From a bacterium (lineage in GTDB: Bacteria; Babelota; Babeliae; Babelales; UASB340), in assembly GCA_030629005.1 (NCBI GenBank), contig DAOVPV010000001.1, positions 130,429 to 194,428 of the forward strand: a DNA stretch of 64,000 nt, in the 5' to 3' direction. Position numbers and translations under genes: made by a program. Shown here in pieces: positions 33,801 through 63,992 of the stretch; positions within the stretch are counted from its first letter, which is position 1; each line of letters opens with the position of its first letter. The notes beneath the pieces were generated by a model that was not told the origin of the DNA, did no database searches, and saw only the letters and a program-made list of their open reading frames with translations.

Positions 33801-33835
33801 GGACTTAGATCCCGCATCCAGTGCGGGATGACACT
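33801..33835. repeat. Short form of the GC-rich hairpin element GGACTTAGATCCCGCAT-CCAG-TGCGGGATGAC
   Basis: 8-bp stem ATCCCGCA/TGCGGGAT. The same termini bracket a longer insert at 63929..63992. Overlaps the last 10 codons (incl. stop) of bioY. Confidence 0.8.
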
Positions 33836-53688: not shown

Positions 53689-56151
53689 TTAAGCCCCTGA
53701 CAAAATCTCAAAATTATCCACAATCCCTACATTTTTAAGAATATTCTCCTCATAAAATGCACGATAAAATTGGAACTTTAAAATACCATTATCATCCTTA
53801 AACAATTTCATGTAAGAAGGGATATAATGAAACCTACCATCTTCATGTTTAATAGTAGCTAAAGTAAAAATATCTGGTTTTACAAGCAAAGCCCGTGGTG
53901 ATTTGGAATGTAAACAATATTTATACTTAATATCTAATAAAGGTAAGTCTTTATTCTTAGCAAAACTCTTTCTACGAGAAATTCCTGCATATATTTCATG
54001 AAGCTCTAAATCTCTCTTACTTAAAGACCTCAAATTAACACCTGTACCCATTATTATAGAATGCAAGATCCTTCCATTTACTTTTATTTCATTTCTTTCA
54101 TAAATGTGATTGTGTCCAGATAAATAAACATCTATTTGTGAATCCAAAATAAGTTTTGCTATATACTCAAAGGCATTCAATTTTTTGACTCCGAATAATT
54201 TGTGATTAAAATCATCTACTTCAACACTACCCACATCCTTTAATATATTTTTAAATTTTCCCTTATAAGCACCTTCTTTATATGCAATATTTAACAAACC
54301 AGGATGAGAATATTTATTAAAATTAATTAAAGGTAAATGTGCATATACAACAACAAAATCAACTTCACCACAAGCCTTTTTAGCATTGGCCATATTAATT
54401 AATTGCTCTATTTTTCTAAGTAAACTCGGAGTATAATTAAAGTTATACTTCTTACCAATCTCTTCTGAAGAAAGAGGTAAGTTTAAATATAAAACACGAT
54501 CTTTTATAAACCAATTGGACGAAGAACTAACTTGCTCTACAGGTGAAAGTTTATTTTTATCACACTTAACTTGATTAAAAATATAATTAAAAGTTGGCTC
54601 TTTCGTTATAACATCATAAGGAGACTTGAATCGAACCCCACCAAAATATGCAATGTCATGAGGAATCCCAAGAGCAGAAGTAAACACCTTGCCATTCATA
54701 TTTCCCATTGCATTAAAAGCCTTAAACCATTCAAATGGAAATTCTCTTTCTCTATTACTTCGTCCAGAATAAGAAACAAAATCACCAATACTAATATAAG
54801 CTGCACCATTTGTAGGTAAAATAGAATTTAAAAACCAAGCAACCGACCCCCTTTTCCCCTCATTAAAAATTTGGATATTATCTCTTACCTGAAAAGTGTA
54901 TTGTCCTTGAATATCACTAAAAAAATAAACTGGTTCTTTCGCATTAAAAATATCCGGAACTTTAATAATTTTTTCATTATTGCCATACAAAATTTTTATT
55001 TCTTTTCCATCAAGTCCTGATAAAGGTACGTTATAAATACACATCATAGATAAATTACAAACATCAAAACTCAAATCCTGATCATCAGATAATATAAATT
55101 TAATATTATTAGGCGAAATACCCCAAAAAATAACTTTTAGAAATAATTCATTATTATAAGGTGCAATAAAAATTGTCGGCTCTCTAGTAGGAATTAATTT
55201 AACCAAAGAAGTAACTCCGGCTCTACCAAGTTTTTTTTGCATATCACCAATTTCAGGATCAAAAACAAAAAGATTTATAGGCCGCAATGTTTTTTTTACA
55301 AATCGTACTAAACCACTTCTAGAACATGGCTTAAATTCGGAAGAAAAATTTGATGTTTTTGGTTGAACAAAATAATATCGCCTAGCATTCAAGCCTGTTC
55401 CCGCAACAACGCAAGCTCCATCCAAAATATTTTCGAAAGAAACATTTAATGTTTTTGAACGTTTTTTAAAATCAAAAAACTGAAGTTTTTTTTGCTTATC
55501 CACCCTTTGAATATAACTAAGAACATTTGCCTTATTAGTTCTAACTCCATCCTCAGTTTTGCTATAAACAGGCCTGCTATAATCAACTAAAATAACATTT
55601 AACGGAACAAGATCTGAAAAAAATAAAACTGAACGCCTATTTTTTTTCAGCATATTATTTATTTTTTGCTTTGCTGTTTTTTTATAAAAAGCAAGATCAC
55701 CTAAAACCAAAATATAATCAGAATCATTATTAAAAGCCTGAATTCCAAACTGCTTTCCTCCACCATCCTGAAAAAACCGAATTGAAAATTCATGATCTTC
55801 ATAATAGGCAACTATATCTAAAGGTAATTTAGGATTTATATGCTCAGGAATAAAAAATTCAAGATTATCTTTTTTAAATTTTGTAGAAAAAAATTCTCGT
55901 ATAACAGCTGTAACAATTCTACAAATTTTTCTATGATCTCTTTTATACAATTTTCCTAATTTATCTAGCTTAATAGACTTTTCGCGTGCAAATCCACCCT
56001 TAACATCAAAACAATAGTTTTTAGGTAAAAAGACTGCTACTTTTTTTATTACTTTTTGATCTTGAACAGATATTTCAGTAGAAAATAATGGATTAAAATT
56101 TAATAAAAACAAACACAAAAATAAACTTATTAAACTTTTTTTTAAATTCAT
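53689..56151 (-). CDS. Large secreted calcineurin-like metallophosphoesterase-domain protein
   Basis: LVLGDLAF (GD), GNMNG (GN-like), VVVYAHLPL and YLSGHNHIYER (GH.H) motifs. Signal peptide. Confidence 0.5.
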   Translation of the reverse strand: MNLKKSLISLFLCLFLLNFNPLFSTEISVQDQKVIKKVAVFLPKNYCFDVKGGFAREKSIKLDKLGKLYKRDHRKICRIVTAVIREFFSTKFKKDNLEFFIPEHINPKLPLDIVAYYEDHEFSIRFFQDGGGKQFGIQAFNNDSDYILVLGDLAFYKKTAKQKINNMLKKNRRSVLFFSDLVPLNVILVDYSRPVYSKTEDGVRTNKANVLSYIQRVDKQKKLQFFDFKKRSKTLNVSFENILDGACVVAGTGLNARRYYFVQPKTSNFSSEFKPCSRSGLVRFVKKTLRPINLFVFDPEIGDMQKKLGRAGVTSLVKLIPTREPTIFIAPYNNELFLKVIFWGISPNNIKFILSDDQDLSFDVCNLSMMCIYNVPLSGLDGKEIKILYGNNEKIIKVPDIFNAKEPVYFFSDIQGQYTFQVRDNIQIFNEGKRGSVAWFLNSILPTNGAAYISIGDFVSYSGRSNREREFPFEWFKAFNAMGNMNGKVFTSALGIPHDIAYFGGVRFKSPYDVITKEPTFNYIFNQVKCDKNKLSPVEQVSSSSNWFIKDRVLYLNLPLSSEEIGKKYNFNYTPSLLRKIEQLINMANAKKACGEVDFVVVYAHLPLINFNKYSHPGLLNIAYKEGAYKGKFKNILKDVGSVEVDDFNHKLFGVKKLNAFEYIAKLILDSQIDVYLSGHNHIYERNEIKVNGRILHSIIMGTGVNLRSLSKRDLELHEIYAGISRRKSFAKNKDLPLLDIKYKYCLHSKSPRALLVKPDIFTLATIKHEDGRFHYIPSYMKLFKDDNGILKFQFYRAFYEENILKNVGIVDNFEILSGA
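55433..55453 (+). repeat. 21-nt dispersed motif copy (TCGAAAGAAACATTTAATGTT, 21/21)
   Basis: Inside the metallophosphoesterase gene, antisense to it (codes TLNVSFEN). Confidence 0.9.
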
Positions 56152-56306
56152 ACTACCCCCTAGAAAATTTTGTTAAAAAATATTTTTCTATTTTTTAAAG
56201 TGTATATATTTTCAACAAAATATGTAAAGAAATAACTTGTTCCTATTAAAACAAAGTAATAATTTCCAATGTTATAAGAATGTATTAAGAAAAACATTTA
56301 TTGTTG

Positions 56307-56460
56307 GGCCGGTCTGTCTACGCTAAAGCGACATCGGACAGTCTTCGCTTATCGCGTTCAATATCATTTAAAAATCTTACATTAACTTTACTGGCAAAGC
56401 CAGACGACCTGTTCTACGAAGCCACGCAGGGCGTAGGAGGAAGCTCATTAGAGCGAAGAC
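56307..56460 (-). repeat. GC-rich ~155-nt element directly 3' of tRNA-Glu(CUC), copy A
   Basis: Near-identical to 57884..58039 except for the AT-rich centre. Internal inverted repeats GTCTTCGCT / AGCGAAGAC and a CTGGC-AAA-GCCAG hairpin. Confidence 0.85.
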
Positions 56461-56537
56461 TGGCGTCCCCAAGGGGATTTGAACCCCTGTTACAAGAATG
56501 AGAATCTTGTGTCCTGACCAGGCTAGACGATGGGGAC
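56461..56537 (-). tRNA. tRNA-Glu (anticodon CUC), CCA encoded
   Basis: Folded by hand: acceptor GTCCCCA/TGGGGAC, D arm, anticodon stem CAAGA/TCTTG with loop TTCTCAT, T arm AGGGG-TTCAAAT-CCCCT, discriminator G, CCA. Confidence 0.9.
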
Positions 56538-56549
56538 TAATATAAATTT

Positions 56550-56996
56550 CTAAGAAATAAGTTTATCTAAATATTTTTTCATTACTTCGTAATAAACAGG
56601 AATCTGTGAAGCTATTTTATCTGAAAGTTCTTCTTTGTAAATATGTGATGTTAAATTTCTGCATTTTATCATTTCAATTATTAATTCAGCATCTTTTTCT
56701 GAGATAATCTTAGTTTTACATGCTGATTTTATTACAGATTTTGGGGTATTAAATTCCGATGGTTCATTTAACTGTAACTCTAAATATTTCTTTATATATT
56801 TCCAAAACAAATCAACTGAAAATTCAAACCGTTGAATCAAAGAATCCCTTAAAGATCTTCTTAGATCTTCATTTTCCAAAAAATCCACCGCTTGTTTTTC
56901 TATTTGTGAATCCAATTTTTTTAAATAAGAAATAGCCTCATTTAACCTATCCATTGCATTGCTTAAATTTTCATATTTCAGTTTTAAGATGTCCAC
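56550..56996 (-). CDS. HEPN-domain toxin (HI0074-type nucleotidyltransferase substrate-binding protein)
   Basis: 148-aa helical protein with an R..LTSH-type HEPN motif (CRNLTSHIY). Overlaps the upstream MNT gene by 13 nt. Confidence 0.7.
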   Translation of the reverse strand: MDILKLKYENLSNAMDRLNEAISYLKKLDSQIEKQAVDFLENEDLRRSLRDSLIQRFEFSVDLFWKYIKKYLELQLNEPSEFNTPKSVIKSACKTKIISEKDAELIIEMIKCRNLTSHIYKEELSDKIASQIPVYYEVMKKYLDKLIS

Positions 56997-57298
56997 AATA
57001 TTTTTTCCCTATCTATTCGTTTTTTAAAGTCAGAATCAACACTATGTAAATCCACCAAATCAACCGTCAAGGGAACATTCGTATCTTCAATTTTATTATA
57101 CAAATCTAAAATAATTTTAAAATCAATCTTTTTACCTGCATCTAACGCCAAATCAATATCCGAACCCTGACTATGATCTAAACGAGCTCTTGAACCAAAT
57201 AAATAAACTTTACATTCAGGAAGAATCTTATTTATTATTCTTAATAATTCGATTTTATAACGCCCAAAACGTTCAGATTCGATTTCTTTTTTTAACAT
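56984..57298 (-). CDS. Minimal nucleotidyltransferase (MNT) antitoxin
   Basis: The LFGSRARLDHSQGSDIDLAL (GS-x10-DxD) pol-beta NTase signature. Confidence 0.8.
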   Translation of the reverse strand: MLKKEIESERFGRYKIELLRIINKILPECKVYLFGSRARLDHSQGSDIDLALDAGKKIDFKIILDLYNKIEDTNVPLTVDLVDLHSVDSDFKKRIDREKILWTS

Positions 57299-57387
57299 AA
57301 AATTTAATCTTCAAATAAAATACCTTAAACTTTTATTACCTTGTTTAAAAGATAATTAAATTACATCATTAAAGCAATTCTATTAAA

Positions 57388-57585
57388 TCAAAATCTATTA
57401 AACTTATTTTTAATTTGATAAAAATAAAATAAAACATTTTGAGCATTTCTTAACTGCAAACCCTTATAAATTAAGTAAATACCCAAAACAACAAAGAATG
57501 CTCTAAATAAAAATTCTGCGGCAAAGATAAAAATTAAAAAAGAACCAAATATTATAAAAAGCAAGCCTCTTAATTGTCTATTCAT
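57388..57585 (-). CDS. Small two-TM membrane protein
   Basis: 65 aa. GLLFIIFGSFL...VLGIYLIYKGL parallels 51353..51586. Confidence 0.35.
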   Translation of the reverse strand: MNRQLRGLLFIIFGSFLIFIFAAEFLFRAFFVVLGIYLIYKGLQLRNAQNVLFYFYQIKNKFNRF

Positions 57586-57618
57586 ACAAAATCCTAAAAA
57601 TAAATATGTTCAAATTTT

Positions 57619-57873
57619 TTACCAAAATCTCTTTGAAGAAAATGCTCTACCTGATTGTGATTTAAGATATCGCTCAAACTTTTTTGCACAACACATATCC
57701 TTAAAAGCCATACAAACTACCAATTCCCAAGGCCTGTCTTTTTTTGTATGAATAGAACCACCAGAATTATGCGTTTCAAGACGTTGCTTAAAATTTATAG
57801 TATATCCAACGTACACCGTGTTGGGACACTTAATTGATCTAATTAGATAAACGTAATAAAACATAGAATCCAT
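57619..57873 (-). CDS. GIY-YIG nuclease-family protein (YhbQ/UPF0213-like)
   Basis: YVYLIRS...VYVGYT..FKQRLETHN...PWELV...A.KFERYLK matches the stand-alone GIY-YIG pattern. Confidence 0.8.
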   Translation of the reverse strand: MDSMFYYVYLIRSIKCPNTVYVGYTINFKQRLETHNSGGSIHTKKDRPWELVVCMAFKDMCCAKKFERYLKSQSGRAFSSKRFW

Positions 57874-57883
57874 TAATTCATCC

Positions 57884-58039
57884 GGCCGGTCCGTCTACGC
57901 ATAAGCTACGTCGGACAGTCTTCGCTTATCGCGTTCAATATTACTCTATAAATCAATCTTTAATTTTACTGGCAAAGCCCAGACGACCTGTTCTACGAAG
58001 CCACGCAGGGCGTAGGAGGAAGCTCGTTAGAGCGAAGAC
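57884..58039 (-). repeat. GC-rich ~155-nt element directly 3' of tRNA-Glu(UUC), copy B
   Basis: Aligns with 56307..56460. Both GC-rich arms are conserved and the AT-rich centre has diverged. Confidence 0.85.
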
Positions 58040-58116
58040 TGGCGTCCCCAAGGGGATTCGAACCCCTGTTGCTGGAATGAAAATCCAGTGTCCTGACCAG
58101 ACTAGACGATGGGGAC
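58040..58116 (-). tRNA. tRNA-Glu (anticodon UUC), CCA encoded
   Basis: Acceptor, D and T stems identical to the CUC isoacceptor (single differences in the D and T loops). Anticodon stem CTGGA/TCCAG with loop TTTTCAT. Confidence 0.9.
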
Positions 58117-58167
58117 ACATAAACTTTGAGAACTGGCTTGCCAGCCGTAGCCACGAAGGGCGTAGGC

Positions 58168-58243
58168 TGGTGAGCCGCGTAGGAATCGAACCTACGACCC
58201 ACAGCTTAAAAGGCTGTTGCTCTACCAACTGAGCTAGCGGCTC
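58168..58243 (-). tRNA. tRNA-Lys (anticodon UUU), CCA encoded
   Basis: Acceptor GAGCCGC/GCGGCTC, D arm GCTC-AGTTGGTA-GAGC, anticodon stem ACAGC/GCTGT with loop CTTTTAA, T arm GTAGG-TTCGATT-CCTAC, discriminator A, CCA. Confidence 0.9.
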
Positions 58244-58362
58244 ACTAAATTTTAGTGTCAAAATTAAATATCAAAGAATTAAATAGACTATAACCCCATT
58301 CACAAGGAAAATTTACAAGAATTATAAAACCATGTCAAGCAAAATCACCTTTTTACTATATT

Positions 58363-59790
58363 TTACCCTAACATCTTGGTTACAACAAAACAATATATCG
58401 CAACACCTAAAATATCCATCAATGTCGCAAGAAATGGCGCGGCCGAATGTGCAGGATCTAAATTTAAACGTTCTAGAAGTAACGGCAACAGTGCGCCCAA
58501 AAACATCGATGTCATTATAATTAAAAAAAGCGCAATACTGACAGTAAATGCGCTTAATAAATCATAGTTAAATAAATAAACCCTAACAAAGGCTACAGAA
58601 ACTAGTATTAAAGAAACAAATACCGAAACGCTGATTTCTCTTAACAAAACTCTAAAGCCACTTTTTCTTGATATATGACCAGTTGCAAGACCTCGAATTA
58701 TAACAGCAGAAGACTGATTTCCAGCATTACCGCCCGTACCAATAAGCATCGTTAAAAATATCGTAATTATAAAATATTTATCAACAATTGCCTGATTGCC
58801 AGCCAAAATATAACCTGACAAACTTTGCAATAATAAAAGTCCAACTAACCAAGGAGTCCTTTGCCAAATAACTGTCCAGATTGAAGTTTGTAAATATTCA
58901 TCCTCAACAGGGCTTACACCTGACATTTTATAAACGTCTTCACTCGCCTCTTCTTCTAAAATTTCAAAAACATCATCTGCCATTATGACACCCAAAAAAT
59001 GTCCTTTATCATCCACTACGGGAGCCGTAAAAAGAGCATAGTGTCTGATCTGATTCACAGCATCTTCCTGGTCTTGATTTACATTTAAAACCAAAATGTT
59101 CTTACGAACAAGATTTTTTAAAATAATATCCGGTTTATTTAAAACAAGGTCACCAAGCTTTATATGACCTACAAGTCTTTGCTCATTATCAGTTATATAA
59201 ATAACACGCAAAACTTCTTGTTTTTCACCCAGTCGCTGCAAAATAGAAAGACTTTTTTTTACAGTAAAATCTTGTATCAATGTAAGAACATCAGAATTCA
59301 TGATTCTACCAACCGAATCCTGCCTAAAATTCAATCTCGAAATTATACGTGAACGTTGTTTTCTTTGTAGTAACTTTAAATATTTTTTAAGCTCTTCATC
59401 CGATAAATCATCAAAAATATCTGTTAAGTGTTCAGTCGAAATATGTTTTAGAAATTCAGAAACCACGCGCGATTCTAAGTGTACCAGCAAATAGGCCCTA
59501 CTGGACACTGACAACTCTTCAAAAACTTTTACTGACAAATCTTTGGGTAAAACGTTAAACAATTTCAAAATCTTCTTTTCAACAAGCGTACTATCAAAAA
59601 ATAACGCTATGTCCGCAGGGTGCTGACTTATCAACAATTTAAAAAGATCTTTACCTAGAGCTGTGTTGCCTTTTATTACAGCATTTAAATTTTTTTCTAT
59701 TTGAAAAAATACTTTTTTCAACTTTAACACTATTTTAGCCCCCTCTGAATAAGGCGTGTTTGACTTTTTACTATTATAAATAATAATCAT
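58363..59790 (-). CDS. mgtE: Magnesium transporter MgtE
   Basis: N-domain, tandem CBS region, and TM domain with GTGGNAGNQS and the C-terminal PFLATLMDILG motif. Confidence 0.88.
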   Translation of the reverse strand: MIIIYNSKKSNTPYSEGAKIVLKLKKVFFQIEKNLNAVIKGNTALGKDLFKLLISQHPADIALFFDSTLVEKKILKLFNVLPKDLSVKVFEELSVSSRAYLLVHLESRVVSEFLKHISTEHLTDIFDDLSDEELKKYLKLLQRKQRSRIISRLNFRQDSVGRIMNSDVLTLIQDFTVKKSLSILQRLGEKQEVLRVIYITDNEQRLVGHIKLGDLVLNKPDIILKNLVRKNILVLNVNQDQEDAVNQIRHYALFTAPVVDDKGHFLGVIMADDVFEILEEEASEDVYKMSGVSPVEDEYLQTSIWTVIWQRTPWLVGLLLLQSLSGYILAGNQAIVDKYFIITIFLTMLIGTGGNAGNQSSAVIIRGLATGHISRKSGFRVLLREISVSVFVSLILVSVAFVRVYLFNYDLLSAFTVSIALFLIIMTSMFLGALLPLLLERLNLDPAHSAAPFLATLMDILGVAIYCFVVTKMLG

Positions 59791-63303: not shown

Positions 63304-63948
63304 CTACCTAATATTTTTTTTTTTGAAATCTTCTGGAATAAATCTTTTGAAAAAAGACAAATCTAAAAATCCTGTCAATTTTTTTTTATCTCTTTTTTCT
63401 TGGCCAACAGAACAATCTACAATCTTCTTCCCCGTTTTTAGATACAATATTTTTTCCAAAAACAAATTGGGTAAAAATCCCAAACTTAAAATCAATCTAT
63501 CGGATACCCCATGAGCTGAAAGATTTAAACCTTTACGATTTAATAAGAAATTTCCAGAATAAGCTATTTTTTTTATTTCTGGAGTATTACCATTAAAAAG
63601 CAATGAAAAATCTCCGAGGCTCTTAAAAAGATCATAGCTCACCAAAAAATCGCCGGGGAATAATTTAAACTCATTTAAAACGTCTAAAGCTTTTAAATTT
63701 TTCAAATTTAATCTCGACTCTCTTTTTTTAATATCAACAAAAACATCACCATAAAAACTCTTATCTCTTAAAAAATTGTTTGTAAATTTTGAAAGAATAA
63801 AGTTCCCTCGAATTTTTTTTAAATCATAAATAAAATCAAATTTACACAAAGCATCAAATTTATTCGGTTTTGATTCTCCAGGGTTTACTTCGTGTGCCGT
63901 GCCCGCCAAAGCTTTATGCGACGGCTGGGTCATCCCGCACTTAACCAT
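63304..63948 (-). CDS. tamB: TamB-like protein, upstream portion (frame stays open to the window end at 64000)
   Basis: Beta-rich repetitive sequence continuous in character with 62091..63266. Separated from it by a 1-nt frame offset inside an A11 run. The N-terminal part runs through the GC-rich element. Confidence 0.5.
   Translation of the reverse strand: MVKCGMTQPSHKALAGTAHEVNPGESKPNKFDALCKFDFIYDLKKIRGNFILSKFTNNFLRDKSFYGDVFVDIKKRESRLNLKNLKALDVLNEFKLFPGDFLVSYDLFKSLGDFSLLFNGNTPEIKKIAYSGNFLLNRKGLNLSAHGVSDRLILSLGFLPNLFLEKILYLKTGKKIVDCSVGQEKRDKKKLTGFLDLSFFKRFIPEDFKKKNIR
63314..63324 (-). other. A11 homopolymer (coding strand) at the junction of the two tamB-like reading frames
   Basis: The plus strand has 11 T at 63314..63324. 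Frames overlap across 63304..63362, and deleting one A joins ...PEDFKKK to ILGSIKKCDVFLDQTDLKKLRG... Confidence 0.85.
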
Positions 63949-63992
63949 GTGCGGCGTAGCCTTGTGCGAAGCCTGTATGCGGGATCTAGTCC
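63878..63992. repeat. Long GC-rich mosaic element (long form of 33801..33835 plus the GGCGGGCACGGC module)
   Basis: The reverse complement reads GGACTAGATCCCGCAT-[37 nt]-TGCGGGATGAC-CCAGCCGTCGCATAAAGCTTTGGCGGGCACGGCACACGAAG... It lies in frame within the tamB-like ORF. Confidence 0.8.

Follow-up and report, generated by a model that had tools for sequence, protein, structure and literature searches.

A tRNA-anchored hairpin array with a small GIY-YIG nuclease gene behind tRNA-Glu in a Dependentiae genome

In this work we describe a locus with two tRNA-Glu genes in a 64,000-nt stretch of DNA (hereafter the window; GenBank assembly GCA_030629005.1, contig DAOVPV010000001.1, positions 130,429 to 194,428 of the forward strand) from a bacterium of the Babelota (Babelales, UASB340), where each tRNA-Glu gene is followed by a GC-rich trailer with hairpins and one of the two trailers leads directly into a gene for a very small GIY-YIG nuclease. 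The locus is one case of a tRNA/tmRNA-anchored unit consisting of a hairpin array and a mini-nuclease gene, and it holds the full copy behind tRNA-Glu(UUC), a nuclease-less copy of the same trailer behind tRNA-Glu(CUC), and an unrelated toxin-antitoxin-like pair, all arranged around a resident gene. Judging by sequence comparison, trailer and nuclease gene form a conserved unit of two parts that is tied to tRNA and tmRNA genes at their 3' ends; this unit is apparently undescribed and probably selfish. The assembly holding the window is a Dependentiae genome of 1.05 Mb in 15 contigs, 95% complete and with approx. 30% GC (the genome under study, G000; its congeners, i.e., genomes of the same genus, are G001, G002 and G003). 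Three tRNA genes of the locus, tRNA-Glu(CUC), tRNA-Glu(UUC) and tRNA-Lys(UUU), were called on the minus strand by ARAGORN and Rfam, and because the genes are on the minus strand, the trailers, which are 3' of the tRNAs, stand at lower window coordinates (Table 1).

The genome contains exactly four GIY-YIG domains, and all of them are encoded directly downstream of a tRNA or tmRNA gene with its trailer and on the same strand, the hosts being tRNA-Glu(UUC), tRNA-Gln(CUG), tRNA-Leu(UAG) and the tmRNA. In 40 relatives the gene is patchy (0-5 copies per genome, some of them pseudogenes), and 23 of the 30 GIY-YIG loci fetched from relatives have a same-strand tRNA just upstream, with a tmRNA at one further locus. 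A family profile search with one genome per prokaryotic species returned at least 566 relatives, of which the best 80 loci were examined; a tRNA or tmRNA ends 83-340 nt upstream on the same strand in 61 of them. These best 80 loci come from Dependentiae, Lentisphaerota, Verrucomicrobiota, Ignavibacteria/Bacteroidota, Planctomycetota, Acidobacteriota, groups of the Candidate Phyla Radiation (CPR) and others, and also from many Alphaproteobacteria (including cultured Bradyrhizobium) and Bdellovibrio bacteriovorus. The common spacer begins with CCA-NN-CTTCGC-hairpin-GCTWCG-N'N'-TGGC..GCCA and continues with GCGAAG-N'N'-TG-TCCG-N-CGWAGC-loop-GCGWAG-N-CGGAC, after which the start codon follows; across phyla, forward CTWCGC modules were found upstream of 52 of the 80 GIY-YIG genes, and CGWAGC..GCGWAG hairpins likewise upstream of 52 of the 80. 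No description of a unit made of a GIY-YIG gene, a tRNA/tmRNA gene and hairpins was found in the full-text literature, whose coverage leaves out most subscription journals.

Some cassettes carry pieces of tRNA genes. The closest GIY-YIG proteins to the one at tRNA-Glu(UUC), with 65-73% identity, are at three loci (L026, L027 and L028, in G029, G010 and G023) without an intact tRNA upstream, and their cassettes keep 6-10 nt of the tRNA-Glu 3' end (..ACGCCA) before a Glu-type trailer, which looks like either movement of the cassette together with a tRNA fragment or decay of the tRNA. Behind the tRNA-Leu(UAG) cassette of the genome under study (G000:C7:32379-32900) come an inverted module, 17 nt copied from the tRNA-Leu 3' end (TCCCCCCTCTTGCACCA) and then another trailer, an arrangement which points to an insertion into the T-loop region that left the gene restored; among 60 loci from other genomes, only L077 shows the same kind of tRNA 3' copy.

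The nuclease at tRNA-Glu(UUC) has 84 amino acids (aa), and Pfam finds in it PF01541 and the related T5orf172 on the same stretch (residues 6-76), with no other domain. The structure predicted for it has a mean confidence (pLDDT, predicted local distance difference test) of 91. Against solved structures, phmmer returned an SLX1 homologue (4e-8) and UPF0213 BH0048 (9e-5), while ranks 1-12 of the Foldseek search were all SLX1, At-HIGLE or UPF0213 BH0048 with 28-37% identity (for the SLX1 matches 30-37%, with a template modelling score of 0.68-0.75); homing endonucleases and UvrC were far below SLX1 in the fold search, UvrC with E > 3. By sequence and predicted fold, the nuclease is SLX1-like, and it consists of the bare catalytic domain. 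No NCBIfam family matched it, and a group I intron endonuclease model appeared only weakly and below threshold. A UvrC-type GIY-YIG domain was absent from the whole-assembly Pfam search, although at 95% completeness of the assembly this absence is not certain. As SLX1 is a structure-specific nuclease that cuts branched and stem-loop DNA (PMC8287910), the adjacent hairpins and inverted repeats would be a plausible substrate for its small relative. Among 41 Babeliales genomes, the excess of modules rises with the number of GIY-YIG copies (rho 0.44, p 0.004, phylogeny not accounted for), and the gene is present in 18 of 22 module-rich versus 8 of 19 module-poor genomes; with the number of Y1 transposase genes, module excess shows no correlation (rho 0.21, p 0.18).

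The module itself is an imperfect palindrome, CC(A)-NN-CTWC-GC-(variable stem-loop)-GC-TWCG-N'N'-(T)GG, with a conserved 3x3 internal loop in which CTWC stands opposite TWCG. Compensating changes occur in its inner and outer stems (CCTA/TAGG, CCTC/GAGG, CCACC/GGTGG, CCATA/TATGG, CCAGC/GCTGG), and the outer stems covary, with 3.8 of 5 flanking positions paired as compared to 2.7 when the flanks are taken from different copies. Where a module adjoins a tRNA, the CCA of its outer stem is the tRNA's own 3' end. The original prediction treated the element as a feature of tRNA-Glu, which it is not: by a strict pattern, CCA-N1-3-C[TG]WCG is found immediately 3' of 31 of the 40 tRNA/tmRNA genes, 16 of which also have an inverted module further downstream, and nearly all tRNAs, when the 170 nt behind each were inspected, proved to have a GC-rich trailer that begins immediately past the CCA. 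There are 6 occurrences of the core word CTWCGC-N3-14-GCTWCG in the window (0.05 in shuffles) and 58 in the whole genome (1 for the backwards control); 37 of the 58 are within 300 nt 3' of a tRNA, and one is 3 nt after the tmRNA. Approximately 20 modules are elsewhere in the genome, circa 12 of them inside stop-free frames of at least 120 aa and in either orientation relative to the frame. Trailers contain both forward and inverted modules, and a nested module at the same GCTTC^G site as in the tRNA-Glu(UUC) trailer is found in about 10 other trailers of the genome, while the tRNA-Arg(CCU) trailer is collinear with the tRNA-Glu(UUC) trailer but without the nested 34-nt module. A census of GC islands with a loose threshold was also made and was discarded as too noisy.

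Pairing within the trailers was examined on 23 spacers from approx. 10 phyla, which are related, hand-chosen and aligned, so that the numbers denote consistency and not formal probability. The long-range helix, the inner hairpin and the hairpin P4 are together 90.2% paired in these sequences, while shuffles reach 79.5% (0/500 as high), 13 pairs have changes on both sides, and the pairing drops to 34-47% when the partners are slid by 1-3 columns. The two positions after the CCA pair with the distal strand in all 23 sequences, the pair types being GC 14, CG 6, UA 2 and AU 1 at position one, and CG 11, GC 6, UA 4, AU 1 and GU 1 at the other; in a regular-expression census, 29 of 30 spacers have an exactly complementary dinucleotide, with 8 dinucleotide types represented. 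An alternative local helix, in which CCA-NN pairs with N'N'-TGG, has support as well, being 96% paired. The long-range and local helices are mutually exclusive, yet both use the tRNA CCA and both have compensatory changes. The distal strand is, in some spacers, complementary to the first half of the inner hairpin as well.

Several elements of the original prediction are borne out by this comparison, namely the complementarity of GTCTTCGC with GCGAAGAC, the CTGG(G)C-TTT-GCCAG hairpin, and the related word after tRNA-Lys, which proved to be a full module of the same hairpin family (58133-58167). Its wider proposal of a structured tRNA-linked element, or a repeat targeting tRNA 3' ends, comes close to the evidence in that the element is conserved, carries compensatory changes and is tied to tRNA/tmRNA 3' ends; it is not supported for the whole 155-nt element as one RNA, whose folding stability does not exceed that of shuffles (z -0.72 and -0.02 for the two copies), only the individual helices being supported. 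Rfam gave no family for the element at the gathering threshold in the window, and no credible one at E up to 10 in 56000-58500; at six loci from other phyla, Rfam 15 gave nothing beyond tRNA and tmRNA at gathering scores.

The two trailers in the window are close copies. The direct repeats noticed earlier are real and cover 56400-56542 and 57979-58121 (92%) as well as 56307-56364 and 57884-57941 (91%) in a repeat search, and both tRNA-Glu genes do carry a GC-rich 3' element of circa 155 nt with arms that are 91-97% identical and a centre that is 65% identical. By segment, the CUC and UUC units agree at 69 of 77 positions in the tRNA, 70 of 72 in the 5' arm of the trailer, 17 of 26 in the AT-rich centre and 53 of 58 in the 3' arm. 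Since the nested 34-nt module is in both trailers of this genome and absent from the relatives, one trailer was copied onto the other within the lineage, the simplest route being gene conversion that began in the near-identical 3' halves of the tRNAs. Downstream of the CUC trailer no GIY-YIG remnant could be detected (alignment score 37; shuffles 28.8 +/- 4.5, max 42).

The architecture of the locus varies among the relatives. All three congeners have the same gene order, MgtE, tRNA-Lys(UUU), tRNA-Glu(UUC), a small transmembrane (TM) gene and tRNA-Glu(CUC), and neither the GIY-YIG gene nor the MNT/HEPN pair of the window is present at this locus in G001, G002 or G003. The TM protein is 41% identical to its counterpart in G002 (E = 3e-17), and since its gene stands between the same tRNAs in three congeners, it is resident and not cargo. 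As the GIY-YIG gene and the MNT/HEPN pair are on opposite sides of the TM gene, at least two separate events are required. Other genera of the family have only Lys-Glu(UUC), and tRNA-Glu(CUC) stands beside tRNA-Glu(UUC) in this genus alone; the tandem of tRNA-Glu genes thus belongs to the genus and is older than the presence/absence differences. The trailers differ too: in G002 neither tRNA-Glu has one, in G001 those behind both tRNA-Glu genes are decayed, and in G003 the UUC trailer is short, without the 34-nt module, P4 and the nuclease gene, and ends in a distal-strand remnant (AAGCGAGGG), with only GTCTTCGC left behind tRNA-Glu(CUC). From this comparison, the MNT/HEPN pair appears as a separate addition, specific to the genome under study at this site and unrelated to the trailer/nuclease unit. 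Of the four genes between the repeats, which the earlier view took as accessory or defence cargo, the MNT/HEPN pair was added, the TM gene is resident, and the GIY-YIG gene is the coding half of the trailer unit and not random cargo. A second, diverged MNT/HEPN (NTase_sub_bind) pair is located at G000:C8:13366-14030, with 44% and 29% identity to the pair in the window.

As for transcription, a candidate promoter of the Lys-Glu(-GIY-YIG) transcription unit is present upstream of tRNA-Lys (Table 1), and it is only a candidate because the region has no more promoter-like sites than its shuffles have on average. Between tRNA-Glu(UUC) and the open reading frame (ORF) of the nuclease, the consensus scan found no promoter-like site, and no terminator was predicted.

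Table 1. Features of the tRNA-Lys/tRNA-Glu locus, in window coordinates, listed in the direction of transcription.
Feature	Position	Strand	Evidence and remarks
Promoter-like site TTGACA-17-TAAATT (candidate)	58310..58338	-	Consensus scan, 10/12 matches; ~67 nt upstream of tRNA-Lys
tRNA-Lys(UUU)	58168..58243	-	ARAGORN; Rfam tRNA 74.9 bits
tRNA-Lys trailer, one module CCA-GC-CTACGC-CCTTCGTG-GCTACG-GC-TGG-CAAGCCAG	58133..58167	-	Outer stem CCAGC/GCTGG includes the tRNA CCA
tRNA-Glu(UUC)	58040..58116	-	ARAGORN; Rfam tRNA 64.4 bits
tRNA-Glu(UUC) composite trailer, 156 nt, non-coding half of the cassette	57884..58039	-	Architecture matches 23 spacers, ~10 phyla
UUC trailer, first module in two pieces	58019-58039 + 57969-57984	-	Sequence
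UUC trailer, short hairpin CTGGGC-TTT-GCCAG	within 57969-57984	-	Sequence
UUC trailer, nested 34-nt hairpin module CTC-CTACGC-CCTGCGTG-GCTTCG-TAG-AACAGGTC	57985..58018	-	Splits the first module at GCTTC^GTCTGG
UUC trailer, AT-rich centre	57926-57968	-	Sequence
UUC trailer, distal strand of the long-range helix GCGAAGACTG	57916-57925	-	Fully complementary to CA-GT-CTTCGC at the tRNA end
UUC trailer, hairpin P4 GTCCG-A-CGTAGC-TTAT-GCGTAG-A-CGGAC	57889..57916	-	Inverted-orientation module with GWA/GWA internal loop, just upstream of the nuclease ORF
SLX1-like GIY-YIG nuclease gene (predicted), 84 aa, single-domain	57619..57873	-	Pfam PF01541, 5.5e-15; start 10 nt past the trailer
Two-TM protein gene, 65 aa	57388..57585	-	Orthologues at the same site in G001, G002, G003
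MNT (Polbeta/NTP_transf_2) gene	56984-57298	-	Pfam
HEPN-type NTase_sub_bind partner gene	56550-56996	-	Pfam, 1e-27; toxin-antitoxin-like pair with MNT, 56550..57298
tRNA-Glu(CUC)	56461..56537	-	ARAGORN; Rfam tRNA 60.9 bits
tRNA-Glu(CUC) composite trailer, 154 nt, nuclease-less copy	56307..56460	-	Repeat comparison with the UUC trailer
CUC trailer, nested 34-nt module	56406-56439	-	Sequence
CUC trailer, P4 hairpin, decaying	56312-56339	-	Lost pairs CGTAGC>TGTCGC, CGGAC>CAGAC

Starting from what was observed on architecture, spread, covariation and locus history, we propose with moderate confidence that the structure-specific nuclease acts on its own hairpins and that the unit and its modules without the nuclease are propagated by copying repair. 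The hairpins would be the cis-acting substrate of the nuclease, as single-stranded or extruded DNA, in the way NTS/SRM repeats are for Ssn and repetitive extragenic palindromes (REPs) for the REP-associated tyrosine transposases (RAYT). Action of the nuclease at the ends of tRNA genes, followed by copying repair, would spread both the unit and modules without the nuclease, and homology of the tRNAs would permit copying between the two tRNA-Glu genes. The nuclease gene would be expressed by read-through from the tRNA promoter, and the trailers would be largely dispensable passengers, perhaps serving secondarily as 3' hairpins on tRNA precursors. Selfish behaviour at the DNA level is favoured by the turnover among congeners, the nested insertions, the copies in coding frames in both orientations, the cassettes carrying tRNA-Glu fragments in three genomes and the 17-nt tRNA-Leu copy. 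More tentatively, and as a possibility that goes well beyond the locus, the unit may represent a third, pan-bacterial class of selfish hairpin-repeat/nuclease systems after REP/RAYT and SRM/Ssn, made of an SLX1-like mini GIY-YIG protein and CTWCGC modules. Such a unit would home to the CCA end of tRNA/tmRNA genes in a nucleic-acid-guided manner, its TGG-N'N' pairing with the CCA-NN of the target, the two helices would be donor and target conformations, and the nuclease-less modules, found on three quarters of the tRNA genes here, would be offspring similar to miniature inverted-repeat transposable elements (MITEs).

Several observations weigh against a nuclease that spreads its own hairpins. 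The correlation of modules with GIY-YIG genes is modest, with phylogeny not accounted for, and G001 and G002 with 25-33 modules, as well as G019 with 54, are all without a GIY-YIG gene, so modules persist, or spread, without the nuclease. Duplication of the tRNA 3' end after the cassette, which is expected on insertion into a tRNA gene, was limited to 2 of 60 loci. The nuclease gene at tRNA-Glu(UUC) may have been gained by the genome under study or lost by its congeners, as the distal-strand remnant in G003 and the GIY-YIG gene at the same Lys-Glu(UUC) site in other Babeliales (loci L030, L032, L034, L061 and L066) leave both possible. Mismatches in the long-range helix are G.T in 7 cases and A.C in 6, a count that does not discriminate between pairing of RNA (or the sense strand) and of DNA. 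Finally, the first module always has one orientation to the tRNA and the helices include the tRNA CCA, which fits a role at the RNA level at least as well.

Such a role is the strongest of the rivals, although we regard it as rather unlikely to be the main one. The element would then be chiefly a functional structured RNA, a co-transcribed 3' trailer which sequesters the CCA, switches between local and long-range pairing, and directs 3' processing or termination of the precursor or controls stability or translation of the GIY-YIG mRNA; it is compatible with a selfish origin. The orientation to the tRNA, fixed in 31 of 31 trailers, the compensatory changes across phyla in two exclusive helices that both contain the CCA, the lack of a promoter-like site between tRNA and ORF and of a predicted terminator, and an architecture kept from Dependentiae to Bradyrhizobium all agree with it, as does P4, which decays where the ORF is absent, as expected of an element of a 5' untranslated region. 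However, the element is dispensable and decaying at the orthologous tRNAs of congeners, modules are also found away from tRNAs in both orientations relative to host frames, and the 155-nt RNA shows neither stability above shuffles, nor an excess of G.U over A.C, nor an Rfam match. It is improbable that the modules are ordinary REPs or paired REPs (REPINs) moved by the RAYT (an IS200-like Y1 transposase) of the genome, with the tRNA position being tolerated intergenic space and the GIY-YIG genes unrelated neighbours. The genome does have a RAYT-like gene (C6:5993-6367; PF01797, 97 bits), conserved in genus and family, and the imperfect palindromes, with their CGTAG/CTACG words and clusters similar to bacterial interspersed mosaic elements (BIMEs), are reminiscent of GTAG-tagged REPs (PMC3733652). 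But that gene is flanked by its own, different 52-nt REP family of circa 10-12 copies, eight module-rich genomes are without a Y1 transposase, GTAG is not fixed (W is A or T), and the linkage of trailer and GIY-YIG gene holds across phyla; with its own REPs at the RAYT gene and no correlation of module load with Y1, the RAYT was rejected as the main mobiliser of the modules. Very improbable is the view that the repeats are attL/attR-like ends of a single integrated or recombination-generated islet with four cargo genes. It was suggested by direct repeats of approx. 230 nt around 1.35 kb with defence-type genes, and tRNA genes are classic integration sites. Yet none of the ORFs between the repeats is an integrase or recombinase, and each repeat is a complete tRNA gene, with an anticodon of its own, together with its trailer, not the 3' part of a tRNA alone. 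In three congeners, Glu(UUC)-TM gene-Glu(CUC) exists without the GIY-YIG gene or the MNT/HEPN pair, so the repeats do not bracket one inserted islet around the resident gene.

The nearest described system, with the same logic as the unit we propose, is Ssn, whose single-domain GIY-YIG proteins of 94 aa cut single-stranded DNA (ssDNA), but neither double-stranded DNA nor RNA, beside NTS/SRM hairpin repeats that flank their own genes, a layout likened by its authors to IS200/IS605 and REP/RAYT (Chenal et al. 2025, Nat Commun, PMC11893778). In both cases the protein is a very small single-domain GIY-YIG protein (94 aa in Ssn, 84 aa here) and its gene is flanked by imperfect hairpins of 20-50 nt, and in both the repeats are dispersed in tens to hundreds, are enriched in symbionts or intracellular bacteria and have a non-palindromic flank that gives direction. 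The sequence comparison does not support membership of the present nuclease family in Ssn. The Ssn family is the cd10448 clade, set apart from Slx1 by the authors (PMC11893778), whereas the protein here is closest to SLX1/UPF0213 by sequence and fold; the SRM motif HGTCWYN(0-2)YYVSBRHN(0-5)WNVSBRGN(0-2)RNCYNB lies within 600 nt of 2 of 80 genes here (backwards control 0) versus 71% for ssnA, with only 5 matches in the whole genome. The hairpins here differ from those of Ssn in their conserved core, with a CTWC/TWCG or GWA/GWA 3x3 internal loop, and are anchored to the tRNA/tmRNA CCA end; the main text of the Ssn paper does not contain the word 'tRNA' (PMC11893778).

Separately from the modules, the genome has 33 NTS-like hairpins of the form GTCATCC-stem-loop-stem-GGAT(CYAG), with compensatory changes in the stem, one of which is in the window (33809-33832, minus strand). 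They closely resemble the Neisseria NTS and Ssn-related motifs, and several are in tRNA trailers. Some hold a CTWCGC module in the loop (e.g., C2:29581-29643), and a composite GC-rich repeat at 63881-63983 of the window (core 63955-63971, minus strand) is of this kind and stands within a stop-free frame of 529 aa.

With REP/REPIN/BIME elements and their RAYT, the modules share imperfect palindromes with conserved mismatches, clusters of alternating orientation, occasional intragenic copies and variability between close relatives (Di Nocera et al. 2013, PMC3733652). They differ in that the linked gene is GIY-YIG and not an HUH Y1 gene, and in their anchoring to tRNA/tmRNA 3' ends, where they pair with the CCA. 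When compared with the end tetranucleotides of REPs, the core here is CGWAG/CTWCG, which contains GTAG only if W = T, and CTTCG is as common as CTACG. As regards the genome's own REPs, a REPtron is found at G000:C6:5839-6530, where the RAYT-like Y1 gene is placed between inverted copies of its 52-nt GC-rich REP, and further pairs of this REP are at C9:18254-18418, C9:33437-33750 (around a Y1 remnant) and C2:8331-8462.

Stand-alone Slx1-like/UPF0213 proteins (PDB 1ZG2, 1YWL) and eukaryotic SLX1 have the same minimal GIY-YIG fold as the nuclease. Bacterial Slx1-like proteins were treated as vertically inherited repair factors in the GIY-YIG phylogenomics study of Dunin-Horkawicz et al. (2006, PMC1564403), and its passages on tRNA report no linkage to tRNA genes or hairpin repeats; in contrast to that literature, the family described here is patchy, with 0-5 copies per genome and pseudogenes. 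Phage T4 SegB is similar in being a free-standing GIY-YIG gene among tRNA genes that is present or absent between relatives (PMC2330249). The protein described here has 84 aa and the catalytic domain only, unlike homing endonucleases of the Seg type, which join GIY-YIG to a DNA-binding region (~200 aa or more). SegB is a larger, phage-borne protein with a separate DNA-binding region, and it is not known to have a hairpin array. Rickettsia palindromic elements (RPEs) are likewise GC-rich palindromic repeats in the AT-rich genome of an intracellular bacterium, some of them in frame in protein genes, but they are a different sequence family; we know of no tRNA-end anchoring or linked nuclease gene described for them, save the later Ssn link of CGTC-tagged repeats. 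The modules in long open frames of the present genome are reminiscent of these elements.

If the mechanism is true, a widespread selfish or domesticated element would decorate tRNA/tmRNA 3' ends from Dependentiae to Bradyrhizobium and Bdellovibrio, and its enzymes would be the smallest GIY-YIG proteins known, which have long been listed as 'UPF0213 / putative repair nucleases'; this would account for the common, so far unexplained annotation pattern of a tiny GIY-YIG gene beside a tRNA. It would also give a tRNA-anchored counterpart to the recently discovered Ssn/NTS ssDNA nucleases, of biotechnological interest as site-specific ssDNA cutters, and would raise the question of how approx. 30 of 40 tRNA precursors cope with a GC-rich hairpin pairing with their CCA end. 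The trailers are an annotation hazard as well, as they could be mistaken for islands, att sites or new non-coding RNAs. Since there are cultivable carriers, namely Bdellovibrio bacteriovorus with a cassette at the tmRNA (as in L085) and Bradyrhizobium with one at tRNA-Ala(GGC) (L088/L125), the idea is directly testable.

Directly downstream of the CUC trailer, at 53689-56151 of the window (minus strand), there is a gene for a secreted-looking protein of 820 aa with a calcineurin-like phosphoesterase domain. Its counterparts vary among the congeners: G002 has an ORF of 981 aa, and those of G001 and G003 are smaller and look unrelated.

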